Positions 8,340 through 58,318 of a stretch of DNA of 64,000 bases are shown here, piece by piece. Made by a program: the position numbers and the translations under genes. The first letter of the stretch is position 1; the number at the start of each line of letters is the position of its first letter. The stretch is from Salinispira sp. (GTDB lineage: Bacteria > Spirochaetota > Spirochaetia > DSM-27196 > Salinispiraceae): positions 2,784,001 to 2,848,000 of the forward strand of contig OZ271918.1 in NCBI GenBank assembly GCA_965602015.1. The letters run 5' to 3'. The notes under the pieces are model-generated. The model saw only the letters and a program-made list of their open reading frames with translations, searched no databases and was not told the DNA's origin.

Positions 8340-9424
8340 CGAAGAACCCCCTGGAAAATATTTTCGGCCTCAGCCGGACTGTCCAGATGGTCCGCGGGCG
8401 CCGCGTCCAATCCCCTATTCAGAAACTCGTCGACGCTCATCGCCGCGGGCTTAGGTCCCGAAAGGGCCTGTTTCCACCTGCGGGCACCGGGAAGAGAAGC
8501 GAAGAGCTCAAGCACCGGCCAGATCAGGCTGCGGAAGTTGAGCCCGGGACCTTCAGGGTCGCTCCAGCGGCGTATGTAATCGAAATAGGCTTCGATGACC
8601 TGGCGCCGGGTGGGAGCAAGAAGCTCGGCTTCGGTCGAAGGACTGCCATTCCAGCTGCGCTCGGCGTAGTATCGGCGGTCCATCAGTGCGAACATCCAGG
8701 GACGCTCATAGCTCAAGCGTCCTATCATCACCCCGTTGATGTGACGCAGGTGTTCATCGATTTGCTCATAGGTTTTAATGCCGCCGTTGATTTCGACGTG
8801 GAGACCCGGGTATTCCCGTTTGAGCCGGTACACATCTTCATAGCGGAGGGGCGGAACCGTGCGGTTCTCCTTGGGGCTCAGCCCTTCGAGGATGGCGATC
8901 CGGGCATGAACCGAGTAGCGCATCGCCGGGCCGTCCTTGATGCGCTCGATAAAGTCAACCATGTCCCGGTAATCGCTCAAATCGATGTTTCTGGTCCGGC
9001 TCTCGATGCCGATCCGGTGTTTTACCGTTACCGGTTTGCTTCCCGCCCGGTCCATGGCCTCAAGCAGCTCAGCGACCCGGGGGCCGTCGGCCATGAGGCA
9101 GGCGCCGAAATTCTTATTCTGGACCCGGTCGCTGGGACAGCCCACGTTCAGATTGTATTCGTCATAACCCCAGTCTTCGGCGATGCGAATGGCCTCGGCC
9201 ATTTCATCGGGATCGTCGCCGCCGAGCTGGAGGGCCAGGGGCCGTTCAATGGGGTCGAAATCGAGGAGACGGCTGCGGTCGCCGTGTATAATCGCCGACG
9301 GAGTGATCATTTCGGTGTACAGCAGGGTCTGCCTGGTCATCTGGCGGAGAAACCAGCGGAAATGCCGATGGGTTTTATCGATCATCGGCGCTACCGAGAG
9401 CGGAGCGTGCACAAGGGTTTTCAT
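8336..9424 (-). CDS. dusA: tRNA dihydrouridine(20/20a) synthase DusA
   Basis: SVAPMI, LLYTEM, NLNVGCPSDRVQ, VHARIAILEGLSPKENRTVPPLRY. Confidence 0.95.
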   Translation of the reverse strand: MKTLVHAPLSVAPMIDKTHRHFRWFLRQMTRQTLLYTEMITPSAIIHGDRSRLLDFDPIERPLALQLGGDDPDEMAEAIRIAEDWGYDEYNLNVGCPSDRVQNKNFGACLMADGPRVAELLEAMDRAGSKPVTVKHRIGIESRTRNIDLSDYRDMVDFIERIKDGPAMRYSVHARIAILEGLSPKENRTVPPLRYEDVYRLKREYPGLHVEINGGIKTYEQIDEHLRHINGVMIGRLSYERPWMFALMDRRYYAERSWNGSPSTEAELLAPTRRQVIEAYFDYIRRWSDPEGPGLNFRSLIWPVLELFASLPGARRWKQALSGPKPAAMSVDEFLNRGLDAAPADHLDSPAEAENIFQGVLR

Positions 9425-10836
9425 AAAACCGCCGCCCCTGCGCCGTCCTGGCTGCTGGCGGTCTGATCACTCGCGGACTGGCCGCTGCCGGTCTGGCCGC
9501 TGTCCCCGGTCCCGCCGCCGGTCTGGCCACTGCCGGTCTGGCCACTGTCCCCGGTCCCGCCGCTGGACCCGGTCGCGCCGCTGGCCTGGTCCCCGGTCCC
9601 GCCGCCAGTCTGGTTGCCGCCGTCCTGGCTGCCGGCGGCTTCATCGCCGGGTGTGCCGGCCGAAGCTCCGGCAGGGAGGGTCGATTCATCGGGAAGGGCT
9701 TTTTCTATTTTGCCGCTTCCGATGCACTCGTCATCAAGGTAAAAAACGGCAAATTGGCCGGGGGCAAGTCCCTTGTCGCCTTCTTCCATGGCAACCGCCA
9801 GGCGAAAGTCGCCGTTTTTCCGGACTGCCCTGGGCAGGGATGCCAGGGCCAGGTCCGTGCTCTCGGCTGGCCGGACAACGCAGGCATCCATCCGGGGCCC
9901 GTGCCGCAGTTTGAGGCTGAAGCGGCGCCCCTCGGGGGGCGTGCCGCCGGCAATCCAGTCCGGCCTGACCGAAGAGATCCAGGTAAGCTCAGCGCAGAGA
10001 AAGCGCTTATGAAAGGCATCGCGGATGTCGTCGGCATGGGAGACAAAGACGATGTTATTATCCGGATCCTTGTCGCTGACGTACCAGGGGCCGTTGCCCA
10101 GCCCCAGCCCGCTTCGCTGTCCGATGGTGTGAAACCAAAAGCCCTTGTGGCGCCCCAGCTCTTCCCCGGTTTCCCGGCGGATTATCGGGCCGTCTTTTTC
10201 ACCGAGGTAATGCCGGACAAAATCCGGATACTTTATTTTACCCAGGAAGCAGATGCCCTGGCTGTCTTTGCGGTCCTTGTTCGGCAGGTTGAGCTCGTTC
10301 GCCAGGAGGCGGACTTCGGTTTTTTGCATGTTTCCCAGGGGAAACCACAGGCGGGAAACCTGTTCCTGGCTGAGGTGCGACAGGAAGTAGCTTTGATCCT
10401 TAACGGGGTCCGGGGCCTGGAAAAGATGGTGCTTGCCGTCCTCCCCCAACTCCACCCGGGCGTAGTGTCCGGTCACGACCCGGTCGTAGTGCTCATCGAC
10501 CGAATCAAAGAATGCTCCGAATTTTATCCGCTGATTACAGAAAATATCCGGGCTGGGTGTCCGGCCGCGTTCGAGTTCGGCCAGGGCGTAGGACACGACC
10601 TTGTCGTAGTATTCGAGCTGCAGAGGCAGGATCCGCAGTTCAACACCGGCCTGCTGACAGACCGCCCGGGCATAGGACAGATCTTCCTCCCAGGGGCATT
10701 CGCCCAGGAAGCTGACGTCGTCTTCTAGCCAGATTTTGAGATAGTATGCCGTTACCTGATGGTTCCCGGAGCGCAGCACCTGATGGAGAGCCACCGAGCT
10801 GTCTACACCGCCGGACAGAAGTACCGCGATTTTCAT
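9421..10836 (-). CDS. mnmA: tRNA 2-thiouridine(34) synthase MnmA with low-complexity C-terminal tail
   Basis: SGGVDSSV PP-loop, PDIFCN, TGHYA, KDQSYFL, DSQGICF; start taken as MKIAVLL at 10836. Confidence 0.95.
   Translation of the reverse strand: MKIAVLLSGGVDSSVALHQVLRSGNHQVTAYYLKIWLEDDVSFLGECPWEEDLSYARAVCQQAGVELRILPLQLEYYDKVVSYALAELERGRTPSPDIFCNQRIKFGAFFDSVDEHYDRVVTGHYARVELGEDGKHHLFQAPDPVKDQSYFLSHLSQEQVSRLWFPLGNMQKTEVRLLANELNLPNKDRKDSQGICFLGKIKYPDFVRHYLGEKDGPIIRRETGEELGRHKGFWFHTIGQRSGLGLGNGPWYVSDKDPDNNIVFVSHADDIRDAFHKRFLCAELTWISSVRPDWIAGGTPPEGRRFSLKLRHGPRMDACVVRPAESTDLALASLPRAVRKNGDFRLAVAMEEGDKGLAPGQFAVFYLDDECIGSGKIEKALPDESTLPAGASAGTPGDEAAGSQDGGNQTGGGTGDQASGATGSSGGTGDSGQTGSGQTGGGTGDSGQTGSGQSASDQTASSQDGAGAAVL
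9440..9660 (-). repeat. Degenerate 15/45-bp coding tandem repeat encoding a Gly/Ser/Thr/Gln/Asp tail
   Basis: GGTGDSGQTGSGQ occurs twice, with degenerate flanking units. Confidence 0.8.
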
Positions 10837-10870
10837 AGGGAAGTATTTATGACAGAAAGACTTATATTGT

Positions 10871-11446
10871 TCAAGGTCCGGATGCGCCGCTACCCCTGAG
10901 GTTTCCGACGATGACAAAATCGTTTGATGCGGCGCCGGCGTGACAGGTAATGCATCCCATGAGGCTGCCCTCGGCAATGACCTCGCCGTCCTGGCTGTAC
11001 ACTGCCCAGAACCAGTCGCCGTTTTCCGGATCATAACCAGGCACCTTTGCCATGACCGTGAGGTTTCCCGGCCGCTCGTCTATATCGTAATTATCCTTGA
11101 CGATGATGGTTCCCGCAGGAGCCCGGCCGTCGCCGACGGGAATTGAGGACAGAAGCGCGTCATTCACAAAAATTCGGTGGAAAGCCCCGTGGGGGCTTTG
11201 GCCCAGGCGGAGCCCGTCGTGCTCCGGCCAATAATCATAGCGCCGGAAATCGGTCTCCTGGGTCATCCGCTCCCACAACCGGGCGGCGCTGATTTCCGAG
11301 GCGCTCAGGGGCGGCAGTTCCGGCTCCTGGTATTCGGCGCAGCCGGCCGCAAGGAGGAGCGCCGCCGCTATAACAGCAACCAGCGCCCTGGCTCGCGCTT
11401 TTTTATTTGCATGCGGCGTTTTTCGCCGAATATGCATTGTGTTCAT
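10871..11446 (-). CDS. Cytochrome P460 / c'-beta family lipoprotein
   Basis: Lipobox LAAGC; GTIIVKDNY, VMAK...GDWFW, C-terminal CITCH (10940-10954) followed by NDFV; start overlaps the upstream stop (TAATG). Confidence 0.85.
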   Translation of the reverse strand: MNTMHIRRKTPHANKKARARALVAVIAAALLLAAGCAEYQEPELPPLSASEISAARLWERMTQETDFRRYDYWPEHDGLRLGQSPHGAFHRIFVNDALLSSIPVGDGRAPAGTIIVKDNYDIDERPGNLTVMAKVPGYDPENGDWFWAVYSQDGEVIAEGSLMGCITCHAGAASNDFVIVGNLRGSGASGP

Positions 11447-13689
11447 TATTCTTCTCCCTGCCGGATCTCCGGCGACCGGGCAAATGTAATGGTGAAATGG
11501 GTTCCCCTGCCTTCTTCGGTCCACACGCTGATGCGGCCGCCCAGGGCGGCGACTCCGTCCTGCACCGCGTCGAGGCCGACGCCCCGGCCCGAAAGATCAT
11601 CGGCGGTTTCCCGGGTAGAGAATCCGCTGCTGAACAGCAGGCGGGTCAGCTGGGCGTTATCCGGATTATCACCCTCGGCAATCAAGCCGGCCTTAACGGC
11701 TCGCCGTCGCACTGCAGAGAAATCAATTCCTCCGCCGTCATCGGCGACGATAATCTTGTAGCTGCCGTCGGCCTTTCCGTTGAAGAGGAACTCCAGGGTT
11801 CCGTGTTCGCTCTTGCCGGCGCTTATCCTTTCGAAACGTTCCTCGATACCGTGATCCACCGCATTGCGGACCAGGTGAATCAGCAGGGGCCTGAGCTGCC
11901 GAAACGCCGGAAAATCCCTGAGGTTGCTCCTAAAAGAGGTCTTGATTACCTTTTCCCGCTCGTCCGCCAGCTCGGCGACCATCCGGTCCACCGCCCGGCG
12001 AAACTCAGCCAGGTTGCCACCTCCGGGAGACGAAGCCGGGCTCCCGGCGCCGGTCTGTCCGCCTGCCCGGGAAAAATCCATAAAACGGGACTGAATGTCT
12101 TCAATGCCCCGGATATCGGTCTTCAGGCGTTCAAGTTCCCGCGGGAAGGTCTTCTCTCCATCCCCGCCGCCGGTAAGCGCGGGCAGCGAGTCCTCCAGGG
12201 CGTGAATGCTGTCTCCGATGGCCGCAAAATTCAGATAACGCGCCGTGCCCTTGAGGCTGTGAAGGTCCCGGGAAAGGGAGTTCATATCCGGTTTGCCCCC
12301 ATCGGCGAGCTGCTCCAGCCGTCCGATCAGGTCCTTGGCATCCTCGCTGAACTCGGCAAAGGAACGCGGACCAATGCGCAGCACCGCCGCGATCTGCTCG
12401 AGCTCGGCGTCGCTTCGCTTGCGCTCCCGTTCGAGTTCTTCCTGGACTTCGACGATTCCCGTCCGGTCGGTAAAAATAACCATAACGTTCTCCACCGATT
12501 CCCCGTCCATAATGCGGTAGAACGCCGCGTCGATGACTATCCTCTTTTCTCCGCCCTGATGGTCGGGAACCATGAGCGCCATGTCCTGCAGCGGATTGAT
12601 AGACATTATCATGTCCATTTCAGTGCTCAGGCTCTCAAAAATGACATCGATGAATTCCCGCAATTCCTGACGGGCCTGGGAGTCATCGGATTTATCGGGA
12701 TATACGAACTCATCGAGAAAACGGCCGGCCACTTCTTCGGTACCAAAAAGCCGGGTTATGTATGCCGAATACTGGGAGCTGATTTTCCGGTCCGGCCCGA
12801 TGAGCAGGAGGCCTTCACCGATGTTATCAAGATATTTCTGGTTTTCCTGGTTACGGGCATCGATTACCTGGTTCTCCAGCTCCAGACGGTCCCGGTCCTT
12901 GAGACCGGAAATCATGGTATTGATCTGACCGGCCAGCAGTCCGAACTCGTCCTGGGTGCGGATATCTGCGGCGACGTCCAAATTCCCCTGCCCCACTGTC
13001 TGAACCACGGCGCCGATGCTTCGCACCGGAGAAATTACCACCCGGCGCATAAGACCAAAGAGCACCATGGCAATGACCGCGCCGGTTCCCAGAAAAAACA
13101 GTATGAGGATGTTCCGTCCCCGGTCGATCTGGGTGAACACCCGGTCCAGACTGATGCTGTAATACGCTACCCCTCGCACCAGGTGATCATCGCCGTGGCA
13201 TACCCGACAGTCGGCGGTATTAATAATGGGAAAAAAGAACTCGAGGCGCCGGTCTTCGATGCTCTCCACAACCTGTGGGGTAGAGCTGTTGACCGAACGC
13301 TGGAATGCGGCCTGGCTGACCGGCACGTCCTCCTGCCTGGGCGTTTCATCGAACATCATGAAGTTCTGAAACTCATTCACGAAATCAAGGGTTTCGAAAT
13401 CGCTGAAGGCGACGCTGCCGTCCCTTCGGTAAATCTGCAGCTGATCGACCCCGGGCACCTGCTGCAGATCCTCAATTGTGGATACCGCAAGTGGAGCCTC
13501 GCCGTCCAGCATGATATTGCGGATGACCGCATTGAGAATTTCGTTGGTGATCCGCACGTCCCGCTGGCTGACGTCCAGCAATGCGGTCCGCTGGTTGGCC
13601 ACCGAAATGACAATGGAAAGACTGACGGAAAGCAGCAAGACAGCGACGATTCCCGCAAGGATTTTTAATTGGATCGATACCCTGTTCAT
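11446..13689 (-). CDS. Transmembrane CheA-like histidine kinase: periplasmic c-heme sensor, HAMP, PAS-like, HPt and HATPase; no CheW domain
   Basis: Two TM helices flank PIINTADCRVCH (CRVCH at 13195-13209); HAMP DEFGLLA; HPt LHSLKG; CheA-type HLVRNAVDHGIE, DDGGGID and FSSGFST...SGRGVGLDAV; protein ends right after the ATPase domain. Confidence 0.85.
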   Translation of the reverse strand: MNRVSIQLKILAGIVAVLLLSVSLSIVISVANQRTALLDVSQRDVRITNEILNAVIRNIMLDGEAPLAVSTIEDLQQVPGVDQLQIYRRDGSVAFSDFETLDFVNEFQNFMMFDETPRQEDVPVSQAAFQRSVNSSTPQVVESIEDRRLEFFFPIINTADCRVCHGDDHLVRGVAYYSISLDRVFTQIDRGRNILILFFLGTGAVIAMVLFGLMRRVVISPVRSIGAVVQTVGQGNLDVAADIRTQDEFGLLAGQINTMISGLKDRDRLELENQVIDARNQENQKYLDNIGEGLLLIGPDRKISSQYSAYITRLFGTEEVAGRFLDEFVYPDKSDDSQARQELREFIDVIFESLSTEMDMIMSINPLQDMALMVPDHQGGEKRIVIDAAFYRIMDGESVENVMVIFTDRTGIVEVQEELERERKRSDAELEQIAAVLRIGPRSFAEFSEDAKDLIGRLEQLADGGKPDMNSLSRDLHSLKGTARYLNFAAIGDSIHALEDSLPALTGGGDGEKTFPRELERLKTDIRGIEDIQSRFMDFSRAGGQTGAGSPASSPGGGNLAEFRRAVDRMVAELADEREKVIKTSFRSNLRDFPAFRQLRPLLIHLVRNAVDHGIEERFERISAGKSEHGTLEFLFNGKADGSYKIIVADDGGGIDFSAVRRRAVKAGLIAEGDNPDNAQLTRLLFSSGFSTRETADDLSGRGVGLDAVQDGVAALGGRISVWTEEGRGTHFTITFARSPEIRQGEE

Positions 13690-13697
13690 AAACCGGC

Positions 13698-14165
13698 CTA
13701 CGCGATGTCACGCAGGGACACGTTAACCGAAAACTTGCCAATGTCGCTTTCGAAGGGGATAACGATGACCGGGATTCCTTCTGGCCAGTGGATTTTGTAT
13801 TCCTTGCCGGTGACCACCCCCGGGAGGGATATTTCGATGCGAAATTCCGTGAGACCCTGTTTGGCGTTGCCGGCTATGATATTGATCATTTCGCCCACGC
13901 CGTCTATCACTTCATTGCTCAATGCCCGGTACTGCCGCTGCTCCATTTTGGATACCGCTTCGATTGAGGTTTCCCGGCTGAAACTGAGAACTACCGCCCC
14001 CTTTGTTTCACCGGCGAGTCCGATAATGCCCGAAACTTCCAGGAGATTGCTGTCATCGGTCTTGAGGAATGGCGCCCCGGGAACCACCGGTACCCCGAGA
14101 AACTCGGTGAACAGATTATGCGTGGCTTGAATAAACGGGTTGATGTATTTGGCTTTCAAAGGCAA
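13698..14165 (-). CDS. cheX: Chemotaxis phosphatase CheX
   Basis: YINPFI, VSGIIGLAG, GEMINIIAGNAK (E-x2-N), ISLPGVVTG. Confidence 0.92.
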   Translation of the reverse strand: MPLKAKYINPFIQATHNLFTEFLGVPVVPGAPFLKTDDSNLLEVSGIIGLAGETKGAVVLSFSRETSIEAVSKMEQRQYRALSNEVIDGVGEMINIIAGNAKQGLTEFRIEISLPGVVTGKEYKIHWPEGIPVIVIPFESDIGKFSVNVSLRDIA

Positions 14166-14219
14166 ATCCTTTCTCTTCTCTGCCCGGGACTGGTGCCGGA
14201 GCAGGCTGGCCGGCGGGGA

Positions 14220-14588
14220 CTAGTGAACGTAGTCCTTGATTTTCTCCCACAGGGTGTTGCCCCGCACGGGTTTTACAACGTAGTTGGTGACGCCGGCCTT
14301 GATGGCCTCCATTACATTGTACTTCGCTGATTCGGATGTGATCATGATGATAGGCGTCTTGGCGTACTTGTCGGACGACCGCAGATGCTTGACGAAGCTC
14401 AGCCCGTCGAGCTTGGGCATGTTCCAGTCCACCAGGAAGAGGTCGAAGGTCTTGTCCTCCGCCAGCAGCAGGGCGCTCTTTCCATCCGGCGCCTCGGTGA
14501 TATCGTCCTCGCTGATGTGCTGCTCCAGGAGGGTGTTTTTATGAATGCGGCGCATGACGCCAGAATCGTCGACGATGAGGATTTTCAT
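14220..14588 (-). CDS. cheY: CheY-like single-domain response regulator
   Basis: ILIVDD, LVDWNMP, IIMITS, YVVKP; RBS gggag before the ATG at 14588. Confidence 0.85.
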   Translation of the reverse strand: MKILIVDDSGVMRRIHKNTLLEQHISEDDITEAPDGKSALLLAEDKTFDLFLVDWNMPKLDGLSFVKHLRSSDKYAKTPIIMITSESAKYNVMEAIKAGVTNYVVKPVRGNTLWEKIKDYVH

Positions 14589-14615
14589 TGTTGTCTCCCG
14601 CTTAAGCTTAGCCAT

Positions 14616-14643
14616 TTATCGTCTGGGCGTATAGGTAAATTAG
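14616..14643 (-). promoter_or_regulatory. Putative sigma28 (FliA) promoter
   Basis: Minus strand reads TAAT-N15-GACGATAA against consensus TAAA-N15-GCCGATAA, 27 nt before cheY. Confidence 0.55.
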
Positions 14644-14674: not shown

Positions 14675-14705
14675 AAAAAAAGGCGCTCCCTCAAAGGGAG
14701 CGCCT
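14675..14705 (-). terminator. Rho-independent terminator of the upstream outer-membrane protein gene
   Basis: aggcgctccct-caa-agggagcgcct hairpin with an A7 run on the left (U tract on the minus strand). Confidence 0.9.
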
Positions 14706-14724
14706 CATTAGGGCAAGCGTCGAA

Positions 14725-16395
14725 TTACTCGAGTCCGACGATAAGTTGAACGTCCAGAGAATCAAACACAAAGAGGTTGGATCCGTTAAGCTGAAGATCT
14801 GCCCGAACACCTTCTCCTAAATCGAAGGTCAGGCCAAAGCTGTGCTGAAAATCAAATGCCCAAAAATGATCCACTTCCCTGGTGGTATTACCGCCGCCAA
14901 CGGTGGTCGTGGGAGTCGTACCCTGACTGACATCGTTGATGTCGAAGGTTTCGACGCTGGAAGCCGCATTGGTATCGTTGCTGACTACCTCACGAGTATA
15001 GCTCATGCTCGCATCGGCGCCCATGATGACTCCGAAAAACCAGCCTTCGGGTTCCACAACTGCGGCCATGGGGATGTTCGCAGCAATTGTCGTACTGACA
15101 GTGGAATCATCCGTAGCGACTTCGGTAAAAGTCGTAGTCTGGTAAGAGACGATGTTGTCATATGCCCCGTCGCCGGTAGTATCTGAAACAGATTTGATGG
15201 CGTTCTCGGTGAGGGTCAGGTTTGTCTCGGGAGTCACATCGAGAAAGAATCCAAGAGACGGCTCAATTCCCACAGTGAGGAATGATGCAGGGTTATAGTA
15301 GAAGCTGTGGCTGGCTCCCACGTTGAAATTCATATCGAGATTGCCGCGATAGGTGAGAGTCTGATCCACACTGGTGCCGCCGGCAACAAAGGTTCCTGCC
15401 GCTCGTCCACCCGCATAGTCATTTACCACTGTCACGTCGTCAATGACAAAATTACGGGAATGCATTGTGAAGCTCAAACCACCGCCGACTTTGAAATCGT
15501 TCATTTCGTGCTCTCCGAAGAGGGCAGGAAGGGTGAGAATGTAGTTGGGACTGATGTTGATTTCAGTCGTAACATCCTTCGTGGAGTCGGTTGAAAGGGC
15601 AAGGCCCGCTGTTGCAATTTCCGGCAGGGTTGTCAACGTCTCTTCGGTAGATGTCGAATTATTTAGCCTGTCGTAGGTGAGGTTAAAGGTTATGAGATGG
15701 GCTAAATCACCGGTTGTCAAAAACACCGGAACACCAAGGGTAATTACCGTCGCGGTACCGCCGGCGTCCCGTTCCTTGGTCTCCTGAACATAATCGGTTT
15801 GCTGTGACGGTGTATCAACCGCCGGGGCGGCGGCGCCGTTGTAATTCTGGGTGAATGTTTCATCGAAGTTGTTGGCTGCCGCAGCATTGTCATCGATAAA
15901 AATATCCAGGTAGGCACCTACGTTCAATCCGCCCAGACCAATGAGGAACTGTGCCTCGGTGCTGAAGGTATTGAATGCCTGTGCCTGAAAGTTGACCGCT
16001 GTATTGCTACCGACGTACTGACCGCCGCCGTCGTTTGCGAGGGTGTCGGTATCAGAACTGATATCTACCGCAGTAATGGTTGTGGCATTCATGGTGCCGA
16101 CTACGGACATGGGCTGCTCGCCGGGCAAATAGAGCCCGATAAACGGCAGATTGCCCCCGGGGCCGAAAGTGTTTGCCCGTAGATCGAGGTTTTCAAGACC
16201 GCCGAAGAAGTACTTCTTCTCCAGACCGCTGAATGACCCTCCATACAGGGTTTCATCAACATTGAGAGAGTAATCCAACTCGTTGCTGAAAATATCGAAC
16301 GTCAACCTTTCCAGCAGCGAACCAGTCACGTACTGGGCTGATAGCGATGCGCCTAAGAGGGCAAAAATCGCCAGAAATAATACAAGTCGCTTCAT
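14725..16395 (-). CDS. Putative outer-membrane beta-barrel / surface protein
   Basis: Signal peptide MKRLVLFLAIFALLGASLSA; Thr/Asp-rich amphipathic strands; GGAGG RBS; own terminator. Confidence 0.6.
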   Translation of the reverse strand: MKRLVLFLAIFALLGASLSAQYVTGSLLERLTFDIFSNELDYSLNVDETLYGGSFSGLEKKYFFGGLENLDLRANTFGPGGNLPFIGLYLPGEQPMSVVGTMNATTITAVDISSDTDTLANDGGGQYVGSNTAVNFQAQAFNTFSTEAQFLIGLGGLNVGAYLDIFIDDNAAAANNFDETFTQNYNGAAAPAVDTPSQQTDYVQETKERDAGGTATVITLGVPVFLTTGDLAHLITFNLTYDRLNNSTSTEETLTTLPEIATAGLALSTDSTKDVTTEINISPNYILTLPALFGEHEMNDFKVGGGLSFTMHSRNFVIDDVTVVNDYAGGRAAGTFVAGGTSVDQTLTYRGNLDMNFNVGASHSFYYNPASFLTVGIEPSLGFFLDVTPETNLTLTENAIKSVSDTTGDGAYDNIVSYQTTTFTEVATDDSTVSTTIAANIPMAAVVEPEGWFFGVIMGADASMSYTREVVSNDTNAASSVETFDINDVSQGTTPTTTVGGGNTTREVDHFWAFDFQHSFGLTFDLGEGVRADLQLNGSNLFVFDSLDVQLIVGLE

Positions 16396-16535
16396 GTGTA
16401 CCTCCGTGGTTTTGTACTCACCTATCATTTTATATCCCAGTCTGAAAAAAACAAGGTCCGGTATCGCCTTTCCGGATTATTTAAAGCATTTGGAATAATT
16501 CTTGAAATTTCTTAATCCCGACCTATTCTCAAAGA

Positions 16536-56218: not shown

Positions 56219-58318
56219 ATGAAAAACATGAAGCTCACTACTAAAATCGCGCTTATTTTCGGGGTAATGGGATTCCTGCTGCTAAACCTTGCGGGGATGA
56301 ACTTCTACACATCCCAGTTGGTGCAAAGCGGCTACAGAAATCTGTTGGACGGCGCCATGGCAAAATCCGTGGCGGTGGCTAATATATCCTCCCGGATGCA
56401 GGAACTTCTCGCCCTCGACTCCCGATTCGATTTCACCCTTGAAACCAGCTATCACGTCAATGCAGGCCGGGTTTTCCGGTGCCTGCAGGATGAAATAGAC
56501 CGGCTGCGCTCCATAGAATCCGCCATGGCTTCAGGATCGCCTGATGAAAACGCCCTGGAGCAGGTGAACAAGCTCGCCGCTGAGGCCTCCAATTTCCGCA
56601 ATGTGAGTGACGAGATTTATGAAAAAACCCTGGAGAAGGGACTAACCCGGAACGAAGGGCTGTCGGGCAGCCTGGAGACCGCCGCAGCATCCCTCGGCGA
56701 TCTGGTAACCCGACTCGGCGGCTCGGAGCTGGAAAACCGGGTTCTCGCCCTGCGCCTTGCCGAGCGGACGGTCCTGCTGGACCGCAGCGAAGAAAATTTG
56801 TCTCTCCACGGTGGAATCCTCGACAACCTGTTCATCCTCGCGGCGAACCTCCGGGGGCCGGAAGCCGACAGGCTTCAGTTGACCGCCGCATTGGAAAATT
56901 ACCGCGGTGCATTTAACGCCCTGATGAGGTTGCAGGACGATCTGGATTTTCTCTACGACCGGAGGCAGCAGATTCTCACTCTCACGACGGTTTCCCTCGC
57001 CGGGGAACGGCTGCAGGCAGAAGAAACCCTGGCGGAAGCCACTGCCGGGATAGAACAGCTCATCAGCTCCCTAAATGTGTTTTTACTGTCGGTGACCGGC
57101 GCGGTCCTGCTTCTCGCGGGGGTAATCGCTGTGTTCATTACCCGGGCAATTCGCCGGTCGGTTCAAAAGGCCCTTGAGAGCGCCGAGTACCTGTCCAGGG
57201 GCGATTTTACTCATCGGGTAAAAAGCGACCGGAACGATGAGCTGGGAAGGATCATTTCGGGAATCGGCACGGCGGTGAGCAACCTGTCGGTCCTCATTCG
57301 GGAATCCGCCGATCTGGCCAGGGGAAGCGGTGAGCTCAGCCGGGAACTGGCGGCAAACAGTGAGGAAAGCCAGGCGGCCATCATCGAAATACAGGCGAAT
57401 CTCCGTTCAATAAGCGCGATGGCTGAAACCCTCCGCAGCTCAAGCGGCCACAACCTCGATTCAGTCCGGAAGATAGACGAGAGCATTCAGGAGCTCAACG
57501 GCCTGGTGGAGCATCAGTCTTCGGGAATTATTCAAACCACTGCCTCCATCGAGGAGATGATTGCCAATATTCAGAACGTCAGCGGCATTTCCCGCCAGCG
57601 CTCCGAGGGCATCAACACGCTCCTGGAAATGACCAGGAAAAACGGGGTTGAGATTCAGAACACCAACAGCACCGCCGAAGAAATTTCCGGCCTGGCGAAA
57701 AACATCATGGATATCACCTCGGTCATTAACGGAATTGCCGCCCAGACGAATCTTTTGGCTATGAATGCCGCCATCGAGGCGGCCCATGCGGGCGATGCCG
57801 GACGGGGCTTTGCGGTGGTTGCCGATGAAATCAGGAAACTCGCCGAATCAACCGGAGCCAATGCCGGACAGATCAGCCAGATGCTGAAACACATTACTGA
57901 GAGGATCCGCACGGTGGCATCGAGCTCTCATGAAAGCGCGAACACCTTTTATACCATCGAAGGTGAAATTCAAAGTTTTACCCATTCGTTCTCCGAAATT
58001 GTCAGTGCGATGAACGAAATGTCCGTGGGCTCCACCCAGGTTCTCGAAGCCTCCCAGTCGATGAAGGATGAGCTGGAAGCCCTGTCTAGGCGGAGCAGGG
58101 GAATCAGCGGAGAAACCCGGAACATCTTCGACAGCAGCAGGTCCATGGATGACCAGGTATCCAACATCACCCGGGGCATAGAAGAAATCACCCTGGCCAT
58201 CGGTCATATTTCCGACGGATCACAGCAGGTAGCCGTCATCGCCCAGGAAAATCTCCGGGGGATGAGCGGTATCGAAGAGAAACTGGCGAGTTTCAAGCTC
58301 GAAGAGAAGGCAGTGTAA
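56219..58318 (+). CDS. Methyl-accepting chemotaxis protein
   Basis: Two TMs, [42 protein letters not shown]. Confidence 0.95.

Follow-up and report, generated by a model that had tools for sequence, protein, structure and literature searches.

The window, the whole 64,000-nucleotide stretch of Salinispira sp. DNA that was analysed, contains a cassette of four genes encoding a CheY, a CheX, a 747-residue transmembrane (TM) sensor kinase and a lipoprotein of the cytochrome P460 family. The genes are listed below in the direction of transcription, with the hairpin that precedes them.

14680-14706, minus strand: intrinsic-terminator-like hairpin with a 12-bp stem (8 GC pairs), a 3-nt loop and a TTTTTGG tail
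14220-14615, minus strand: cheY, encoding a single receiver domain (Pfam PF00072 Response_reg, E 2.5e-25)
13698-14165, minus strand: cheX, with a TTG start, of the CheY-P phosphatase family (PF13690, E 7.9e-23, 80.8 bits against a cut-off of 27; NCBIfam CheX equivalog, 63.5 bits against a cut-off of 280)
11446-13689, minus strand: gene of the 747-residue sensor kinase, with TM1, sCache_haem, TM2, HAMP, PAS-like, Hpt (P1) and CheA-type P4 regions
10871-11446, minus strand: gene of the 191-residue Cytochrome_P460-family lipoprotein (PF16694, 43.2 bits against a cut-off of 27)

The original prediction, an earlier reading of this DNA, had described four co-oriented genes, and all four were recovered as minus-strand open reading frames (ORFs) at the same positions. 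The terminator that it placed upstream, at 14675-14705, corresponds to the hairpin found at 14706-14680, which ends the upstream gene (14725-16428) and sets the cassette apart. No terminator-like site was found between the P460 gene and the downstream mnmA gene. The end of cheX is spaced 8 nt from the kinase ATG, and direct reading of the sequence confirmed the predicted TAATG overlap of the kinase stop with the P460 start. The locus had also been said to lack the remaining chemotaxis genes, and no cheW, cheR, cheB or methyl-accepting chemotaxis protein (MCP) gene is present at it. The whole genome has 5 CheW-domain, 4 CheR and 4 CheB matches, every one outside the window, and the nearest of its 32 MCPsignal matches is at 57632-58066 of the window, ~43 kb from the cassette. 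Two CheA genes with a P5 domain belong to the regular chemotaxis set of the genome, and neither is at the cassette.

Architecture and conservation of the receptor kinase

Pfam detects three domains in the 747-residue protein: HAMP at residues 213-264 (PF00672, E 1.6e-9), Hpt at 445-524 (PF01627, E 3.1e-11) and HATPase_c at 602-737. A full-length model built from 80 orthologues (pLDDT 85.4, pTM 0.53, with unreliable relative placement of the domains) begins with a long N-terminal helix that includes TM1, followed by the sensor (66-180), TM2 running into HAMP (182-273) and the PAS-like domain (292-408). The C-terminal half consists of Hpt (441-542), a linker and P4 (558-736), and the chain ends at 747. 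Pfam and the model together bear out the order that had been read from the letters, namely TM, sensor, TM, HAMP, PAS-like, Hpt and CheA-type ATPase with no CheW domain. The kinase gene encodes the following features.

13510-13512, minus strand: codon of Met60, invariant, the candidate distal haem ligand
13147-13506, minus strand: periplasmic single-Cache (PAS-like) sensor, residues ~62-181, between TM1 (~9-31) and TM2 (~193-213)
13195-13209, minus strand: CRVCH, the predicted haem-c attachment site (C161, C164, H165)
12898-13053, minus strand: HAMP, residues 213-264
12466-12816, minus strand: PAS-like cytoplasmic domain, residues ~292-408, five-stranded alpha/beta in the model
12064-12369, minus strand: Hpt (P1) helical bundle, residues ~441-542, with the phospho-acceptor His477 in LHSLKG (codon 12259-12261)
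11479-12018, minus strand: CheA-type ATP-binding domain (P4), residues ~558-737, with N, G1, F and G2 boxes

The motifs found in the protein are CRVCH at 161-165, HSLKG at 477, HLVRNAVDHGIE and SGRGVG, and in relatives the region aligned to residues 292-408 matches PAS_9 or PAS_4. The closest solved structure to the ATPase is the P4 domain of T. maritima CheA (1i58, E 4.6e-28), and NCBIfam CheA models (CheA_Halo, E 5.9e-36) match residues 568-737. Neither CheW (PF01584) nor H-kinase_dim (PF02895) matched the kinase, even when residues 530-747 were searched alone at E ≤ 10, and the C terminus (747) lies 10 residues past P4. HMMER often misses P3 (PMC10782961). A P3 hairpin (at least 52 residues) is ruled out because the last Hpt helix (511-542) and the first P4 helix (558-577) leave no room for it. 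The P1-P4 connection is a disordered linker of 10-15 residues (545-554 in the model).

Every CheA has P1, P3, P4 and P5 and no input domain according to Berry, Andrianova and Zhulin (2023, PMC10782961). By that definition the 747-residue protein is not a CheA, because P3 and P5 are missing and it has its own input domain. It shares with CheA a P1 carrying HxxKG, a P4 nearest to those of T. maritima and E. coli CheA, and CheY and CheX partners. It differs in having no P2, P3 or P5, in its own input of two TM helices, periplasmic sensor, HAMP and PAS-like domain, and in a locus without cheW, MCP, cheR or cheB. By its domains the protein is a receptor joined to a CheA-type P1-P4 core.

The full kinase architecture is shared by ~100 clusters (90% identity) at 38-70% identity and is therefore not a product of chance. 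Where the source names of these clusters carry a taxon, all are Spirochaetales, Spirochaeta or Spirochaetota (metagenome-assembled genomes). A single-protein scan of genome contigs returned one relative only, on a contig of an uncultured Salinispira sp. Neighbourhood statistics were taken from two genome sets, 99 from the order and 401 from the phylum (an even sample); these are related organisms and not independent observations, and several of the genomes are incomplete. The kinase type occurs in seven of the 99 order genomes (G000, the cassette genome, and G001, G020, G031, G443, G444 and G460), which represent four families. No second full-length kinase was found at E ≤ 1e-40 among the 401 phylum genomes, and the type was seen in the order alone. 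The gene order cheY-cheX-kinase-P460 is present at 7/7 kinase-type loci, with the P460 gene of G001 cut by a contig end, and the P460 linkage, whose absence would have counted against the original prediction, therefore holds at all seven.

A library-wide search returned many proteins of 520-1100 residues that share only kinase residues ~255-736 and end with P4. Scanning 49 of the 150 listed, with the longer ones chosen, detected HATPase_c in all 49, Hpt in 47, and CheW or H-kinase_dim in none. Their N-termini carry HAMP with dCache_1, NIT, PilJ, CHASE8 or a haem sensor; others begin with an ammonium transporter, an Fe-hydrogenase-like module or EAL-CBS. In one relative the fused order is REC-Hpt-HATPase-CheX. 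The names attached to ten of them are mostly spirochaetes, with one Planctomycetota. The cassette kinase belongs to a broad and apparently undescribed family in which CheA-type kinases without CheW are fused to sensors. CheW was reported in 100% of 13,673 surveyed CheA sequences, which were drawn from a database CheA set (PMC10782961), and a different, CheW-centred survey is likewise blind to this family. A literature search returned no paper on CheW-less, sensor-fused CheA-type kinases. The original prediction is too narrow in this respect: many such CheW-less kinases come with a CheY and a CheX of their own, the cassette kinase is just one of them, and two more cassettes are present in the same genome.

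Both of these cassettes lie outside the window. The second (L036:4470-8122; G000:C1:2303469-2307121) contains cheY, cheX and the gene of a 929-residue Amt-PAS_9-Hpt-HATPase_c protein without CheW, in which the ammonium transporter matches PF00909 at E 4.8e-124. The Amt-PAS-Hpt-P4 fusion also occurs in other spirochaetes (P0136 cluster; one member is named from Gracilinema caldarium), and the Amt-fused kinase may be the equivalent of the haem kinase for sensing ammonium. The third (L037:3904-6407; G000:C1:1366903-1369406) encodes a 556-residue Hpt-HATPase_c protein that has no CheW; a CheX/CheC-like gene and the gene of a single receiver domain come next, and a GGDEF gene lies upstream.

Conservation also bears on whether the kinase gene could be a functionless cheA, decayed or truncated. 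In favour of this, P3 and P5 are missing, and both are present in every CheA of the 13,673 surveyed (PMC10782961). The ~100 clusters, however, agree in length and in where the protein stops, and neither H477 nor the N, G1 and G2 boxes vary across 80 sequences. The 49 wider relatives likewise lack CheW and H-kinase_dim. A truly decayed copy looks different. In G006 a kinase copy syntenic with 11446-13689 of the window lies next to mnmA and dus (L015:5054-7214); it is frameshifted, has CxxCD for CxxCH, and retains neither the Hpt His nor a complete G2 box. P460, cheX, cheY and CcsA are all gone from that genome, a natural control consistent with joint loss. With no CheW domain, the architecture kept in ~100 clusters and the catalytic motifs intact, the protein as a truncated CheA was rejected on the conservation evidence, and a functionless remnant is scarcely credible.

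The predicted periplasmic haem-c sensor and the P460 protein paired with it

A separate model of the sensor (residues 25-200) was built from 22 sensor domains and has a pLDDT of 82.6. Foldseek places 3b42_B (GSU0935, E 5.9e-7), 3b47 (GSU0582, E 5.4e-5) and 3b42_A (E up to 8.4e-5) at ranks 1, 2 and 4, and the next matches are the Cache domains of WalK and KinD. The rmsd values against GSU0582/GSU0935 are high (13-16 Å), which fits domain-swapped crystal dimers. In the models the CxxCH lies in a short helix (159-165) between the last two strands (148-156 and 171-180). The sCache_heme family, which includes GSU0582 and GSU0935, is defined by just this placing of CxxCH, in a short helix ahead of the final strand (PMC12889525, a 2026 preprint). 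The motif occurs once and at the same position in 101 of 105 sequences; the four exceptions are three N-terminally truncated fragments and P0244, which has a different N-terminus. The CxxCH that the original prediction called a haem site is thus conserved, in a domain that folds like the Geobacter haem MCP sensors. HxxKG is found in 104 of the 105. Among 80 kinases M60, C161, C164, H165 and H477 are invariant, and the Met, Cys, Cys and His are invariant also among the 22 sensor domains, which include kinase and cyclase types. GSU0935 has Met60 as distal and His144 as proximal ligand, and NO or CO displaces the Met (PMC8396549). By analogy, Met60 is a candidate distal haem ligand in the kinase sensor.

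The sensor resembles the sCache_heme group (the DUF3365/Tll0287 family, the GSU0582/GSU0935 MCPs and the Pseudomonas azotoformans Cache_heme-HAMP NO receptor) in its fold between two TM helices, the CxxCH helix before the last strand, the HAMP after TM2 and the candidate Met distal ligand. It departs from them in three ways. The output is a CheA-type Hpt-P4 core, whereas theirs is HisKA, MCP or an associated Ser/Thr kinase; a P460 gene is nearly always adjacent; and the sequence is too divergent for Pfam cut-offs. Fusions of sCache_heme to Guanylate_cyc, MCP and histidine-kinase outputs are listed in PMC12889525. The terms P460, CheA, Hpt and Spiroch do not occur in the main text of that preprint, whose supplements may list such members.

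The second periplasmic protein carries the lipobox LAAGC (Cys36), and in most of the 18 P460 partners that were aligned the N-terminal hydrophobic stretch is followed by a Cys. Its haem motif is located as follows.

10940-10954, minus strand: CITCH of the P460 protein, residues 165-169

C165, C168 and H169 of this site are invariant in the 18 partners, as is His86-Gly87. Solved structures of c'-beta and P460 proteins, 7ead (a c'-beta, E 9.9e-14) and 6hiu (E 3.8e-8), are matched by a profile of the partners. In McP460 the functional residues are the cross-linking Lys78, Asp102, Cys140, Cys143 and His144 (PMC12352625). Lys117 of the cassette protein aligns with McP460 Lys78, and this Lys is kept in 17 of the 18 partners; T. 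thermophilus c'-beta (7ead), the best solved sequence match, has Phe there. McP460 Asp102 is the equivalent of NeP460 Glu96 and is linked to a proton relay (PMC12352625). The aligned residue is Thr130 in the cassette protein, and the position is acidic in only one of the 18 partners (Asp in L018). These residues group the cassette protein with P460 and not with c'-beta. They also point to a ligand binder or redox partner and not an enzyme, because the carboxylate tied to hydroxylamine turnover is missing. The proposed role of P460 as a ligand converter is disfavoured since the distal carboxylate of hydroxylamine oxidation is replaced by Thr130, and conversion of hydroxylamine to NO for the sensor was marked down on the same ground.

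Compared with cytochromes P460 and c'-beta (NeP460, McP460, Nitrosomonas sp. AL212 P460 and T. thermophilus c'-beta 7ead), the cassette protein shares PF16694, a C-terminal CxxCH and the Lys at the cross-link position. It differs from them in being a lipoprotein, in Thr130 for the carboxylate, in the invariant His86-Gly87 and in having a signalling receptor as its gene neighbour. The spirochaete genomes concerned are of a fermentative type and show no other exported CxxCH proteins. From the CxxCH motifs, both periplasmic proteins of the cassette are predicted to carry covalent haem; for the sensor, the conservation of CxxCH and the presence of CcsA in 19 of 19 genomes are indirect pointers. 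One relative of the P460 partners, P0291 (a metagenome protein of 313 residues), has PF16694 and HATPase_c in one called protein; it most likely arose by read-through where the kinase stop overlaps the P460 start, or from a sequencing error, and is no real fusion.

The P460 gene follows the sensor rather than the kinase. The sensor-HAMP module is also found on proteins of 466-580 residues, and 18/18 of those fetched carry a class III adenylate/guanylate cyclase domain. A P460-family gene is directly beside the sensor-HAMP-cyclase gene in 14 of these 18 loci. In the other families of the phylum it lies upstream of the cyclase (9/13 loci), and in the order it lies downstream (5/5 loci). The order genomes contain 21 intact-looking sensor genes in 19 of the 99 genomes, and a P460 match lies ≤ 2.2 kb downstream on the same strand for 19 of the 21; the two without a match are G443:C183, at a contig end, and G460:C10, which has none. 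The cyclase domain was confirmed by Pfam for five of the 13 cyclase-size genes among them. Conversely, 19 of the 24 P460 matches in the order are sensor neighbours. When loci are compared two by two, sensor identity and P460 identity correlate at r = 0.83 (120 pairs, 16 loci), a value reached by 0 of 2000 permutations. The kinase-linked pair has identities of 0.37 (sensor) and 0.39 (P460) to cyclase-linked pairs of distant families, and of 0.26 for both to cyclase-linked pairs of its own order. The correlated identities, and the greater closeness of the kinase pair to distant cyclase pairs, indicate that the sensor and P460 genes travelled as one unit. The view of the locus as a Che-like kinase-P460 operon is correct about the linkage and too narrow in scope: P460 is tied to the sensor whatever the output, and most pairs are on cyclases. 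No paper pairing P460 with a sensor, cyclase, kinase or CheA was found in the literature search. Just after a cyclase-P460 pair, at L031:6733-8410 (G038:C6), come genes for a cNMP-binding protein and a potassium channel of the RCK type, which may be effectors of the locally made cyclic nucleotide.

Sensors are commonly co-expressed with a sink, and the P460 protein could be an enzyme or scavenger that detoxifies NO or hydroxylamine and is merely co-expressed with the sensor, with no contact between the two. The Lys of the cross-link is retained in 17/18 partners, and cytochromes P460 oxidise hydroxylamine (PMC12352625). The proton-relay carboxylate, however, is Thr130 here and acidic only in L018 of the 18. 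The P460 gene is predicted to be co-transcribed with the sensor and not regulated by it, and CheY is no transcription factor. A fixed-ratio partner is the better fit to the overlapping stop and start and to the shared history of the pair across outputs. A detoxifying bystander is quite improbable. The P460 lipoprotein is likely a co-receptor of the sensor for a gas or redox signal.

The capacity for cytochrome-c maturation accompanies the pair. CcsA (PF01578) is found in 23 of the 99 order genomes; four of them, G014, G022, G036 and G458, have no intact sensor, and the other 19 are the complete set of genomes that do. All 19 also have P460, and none of the 76 CcsA-less genomes has an intact sensor. 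Two natural controls agree with this link: G002, in which sensor, P460 and CcsA are all missing, and G006 with its decayed kinase. The ccsB/ccsA genes directly follow the sensor-P460 pair in G031, G444 and G460 (kinase type) and at L025, L026, L028 and L030 (cyclase type). The cassette genome encodes a fused ResB-CcsA (CcsBA) of 1337 residues at C1:2749510-2753520, ~45 kb from the cassette. A crude scan of its 3411 ORFs finds CxxCH in 15, and only the kinase and the P460 protein combine the motif with an export-like N-terminus.

Proposed signalling path and competing explanations

The cassette can be read as self-contained, with a haem-c-motif Cache sensor, likely together with the P460 lipoprotein, controlling an Hpt-P4 core that would phosphorylate the adjacent CheY, and CheX resetting it. 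We regard this account as evenly poised between right and wrong. It is directly supported by the anatomy, the catalytic motifs, the conservation, the sensor-P460 linkage across two outputs and the co-occurrence of CcsA. The path would start with maturation of both periplasmic proteins by CcsBA. The P460 lipoprotein, with a predicted open, Lys-cross-linked haem, would be made in a fixed ratio to the sensor by way of the overlapping start and would dock on the sensor or exchange electrons with it. A diatomic ligand, most likely NO, with O2 or redox state as the alternative, would alter the Met60/His165 haem and displace the distal Met60. The resulting shift of the TM2-HAMP-PAS stack would change the access of P4 to His477 of P1. 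CheY-P would then act on the flagellar switch, with neither arrays of chemoreceptors nor methylation involved, and CheX would reset CheY. The precedent is that periplasmic haem-c Cache or PAS sensors bind NO (PMC8396549). The arrangement is also like that of H-NOX and NosP with histidine kinases and cyclases, where a small haem protein is encoded beside the separate signalling enzyme through which it acts, and kinase and cyclic-nucleotide-enzyme outputs are shared. H-NOX and NosP have cytoplasmic b-type haem, whereas both haem motifs of the cassette are periplasmic and c-type, and the cassette receptor has a haem site of its own.

A number of findings weigh against this account. The kinase has no P3 in the model, which would leave its dimerisation and the route of P1 phosphorylation unexplained. 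The kinase sensor scores 15 bits on PF21563 (E 0.031, cut-off 27); two relatives, L023 (28.0 bits) and P0082 (30.5 bits), exceed that cut-off. Assignment of the kinase sensor to DUF3365 (PF11845) by Pfam was also considered, and no match came up at E ≤ 10. P460 is not strictly required, being missing at 1 of the 21 order sensor genes, and 4 of the 18 cyclase loci (L023, L025, L027 and L029) have none adjacent. At L029 (L029:6268-6675, G320:C13) a small Cytochrome_CBB3-type cytochrome c gene directly follows the cyclase, and another haem partner may substitute for P460 there. The identity correlation can come from shared descent and speaks for co-inheritance, not contact. The cassette is dispensable, as is evident from G002, a complete genome of the same genus without sensor, P460 or CcsA. 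ALAD (hemB) was not found in the 99.7%-complete cassette genome, which bears on the source of the haem. This organism may have to import haem, and the data suggest a haem auxotroph in which sensing is all that haem-c maturation still serves.

The nature of the signal is also contested by the genes beside the cyclase-type pairs. They include rubrerythrin and desulfoferrodoxin (L019), AhpC (L026 and L028), and a nitroreductase with a ferric-reductase-like protein (L022). Of these, rubrerythrin, desulfoferrodoxin and AhpC are oxidative-stress genes, which favours O2, peroxide or redox no less than NO. In a redox relay, the sensor haem would report periplasmic potential through a spin or ligand switch, with P460 as an electron donor or acceptor or reacting with O2 or peroxide, and energy taxis or aerotaxis away from oxidants as the output. 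These neighbours, the plain cytochrome c at L029 and the invariance of Met60 fit such a redox relay. Cytochrome P460 and c'-beta proteins, however, are known as open-site ligand binders or enzymes and not as electron carriers. The neighbours vary from locus to locus among the 18 loci looked at, and no redox chain partner except ccsBA is conserved. GSU0582 and GSU0935 provide a model for the switch, as both are high spin when oxidised and low spin when reduced, via Met60, and are proposed redox sensors (PMC8396549). A redox relay is unlikely on balance, although it is the strongest competitor of the ligand-driven path set out above.

The output is open to a different objection. Many Che-like systems have non-motility outputs, and the phosphorelay may not serve flagella, with CheY and CheX acting on another target such as cyclic-nucleotide or c-di-GMP enzymes, or forming a phosphate sink of the main chemotaxis system. 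The sensor-P460 pair mostly drives cAMP/cGMP synthesis, and the GGDEF gene beside one sister cassette fits such a target. The top NCBIfam model for the cheY product is CheY with 96.7 bits, below the equivalog cut-off of 189 bits. The cheY product is nonetheless a single receiver domain with DD, DWNMP and YVVKP motifs, which presumably can be read as in E. coli CheY. Its real start is likely the second Met, at 14588, based on an orthologue length of 122-123 residues. CheX belongs to a chemotaxis phosphatase family, and a full motility-type chemotaxis set is present in the genome. A non-flagellar output is therefore judged improbable, slightly more so than the redox relay.

A wider reading is tentative and is held with less than even confidence. 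It sees the two-haemoprotein receptor, P460 plus haem-c Cache, as a portable input that would have evolved as one unit and could be attached to a cyclase or to an array-free, methylation-free CheA-type relay, with cytochrome-c maturation kept only for the sensor. The kinase would then represent an unrecognised class of one-protein chemoreceptor-kinases with sisters that have ammonium-transporter, NIT, dCache and hydrogenase-like inputs, and an output of the chemotaxis type would be able to operate with no receptor arrays. Current surveys describe CheA as sensor-less, always composed of P1/P3/P4/P5 and always in receptor arrays; the cassette and its family suggest direct wiring to a TM sensor. 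If true, a CheA core with a private CheY and CheX is a much simpler path from signal to motor. P460-type proteins gain a likely signalling role outside nitrifiers and methanotrophs, where their presence had lacked explanation. Sensor, P460 and CcsA are present or absent together, and sensing may be the sole reason that some anaerobic spirochaetes keep cytochrome-c maturation. One input pair with two outputs, cyclase and kinase, is also a natural experiment on how different effectors read a HAMP signal.

Neighbouring genes and other observations

The gene upstream of the hairpin (14725-16428) encodes a 567-residue protein with a signal-like N-terminal segment and a composition rich in Thr, Asn, Gly and Asp. 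It has no Pfam match at E ≤ 0.01 and, from these features, may be an outer-membrane or surface protein. Downstream of the cassette, mnmA (9421-10839) has a C-terminal tail of ~90 residues rich in Gly, Ser, Thr and Gln, which the G006 orthologue (413 residues) lacks. The longest mnmA ORF has 537 residues and starts at 11034, overlapping the P460 gene; the real start is probably near 10839. Elsewhere in the cassette genome, a 120-residue ORF with CPDCH near its N-terminus is present in five identical copies (G000:C1:1730354, 3441832, 3615373, 3790652 and 3860484), one of them inside a longer ORF, and it probably belongs to an insertion sequence.

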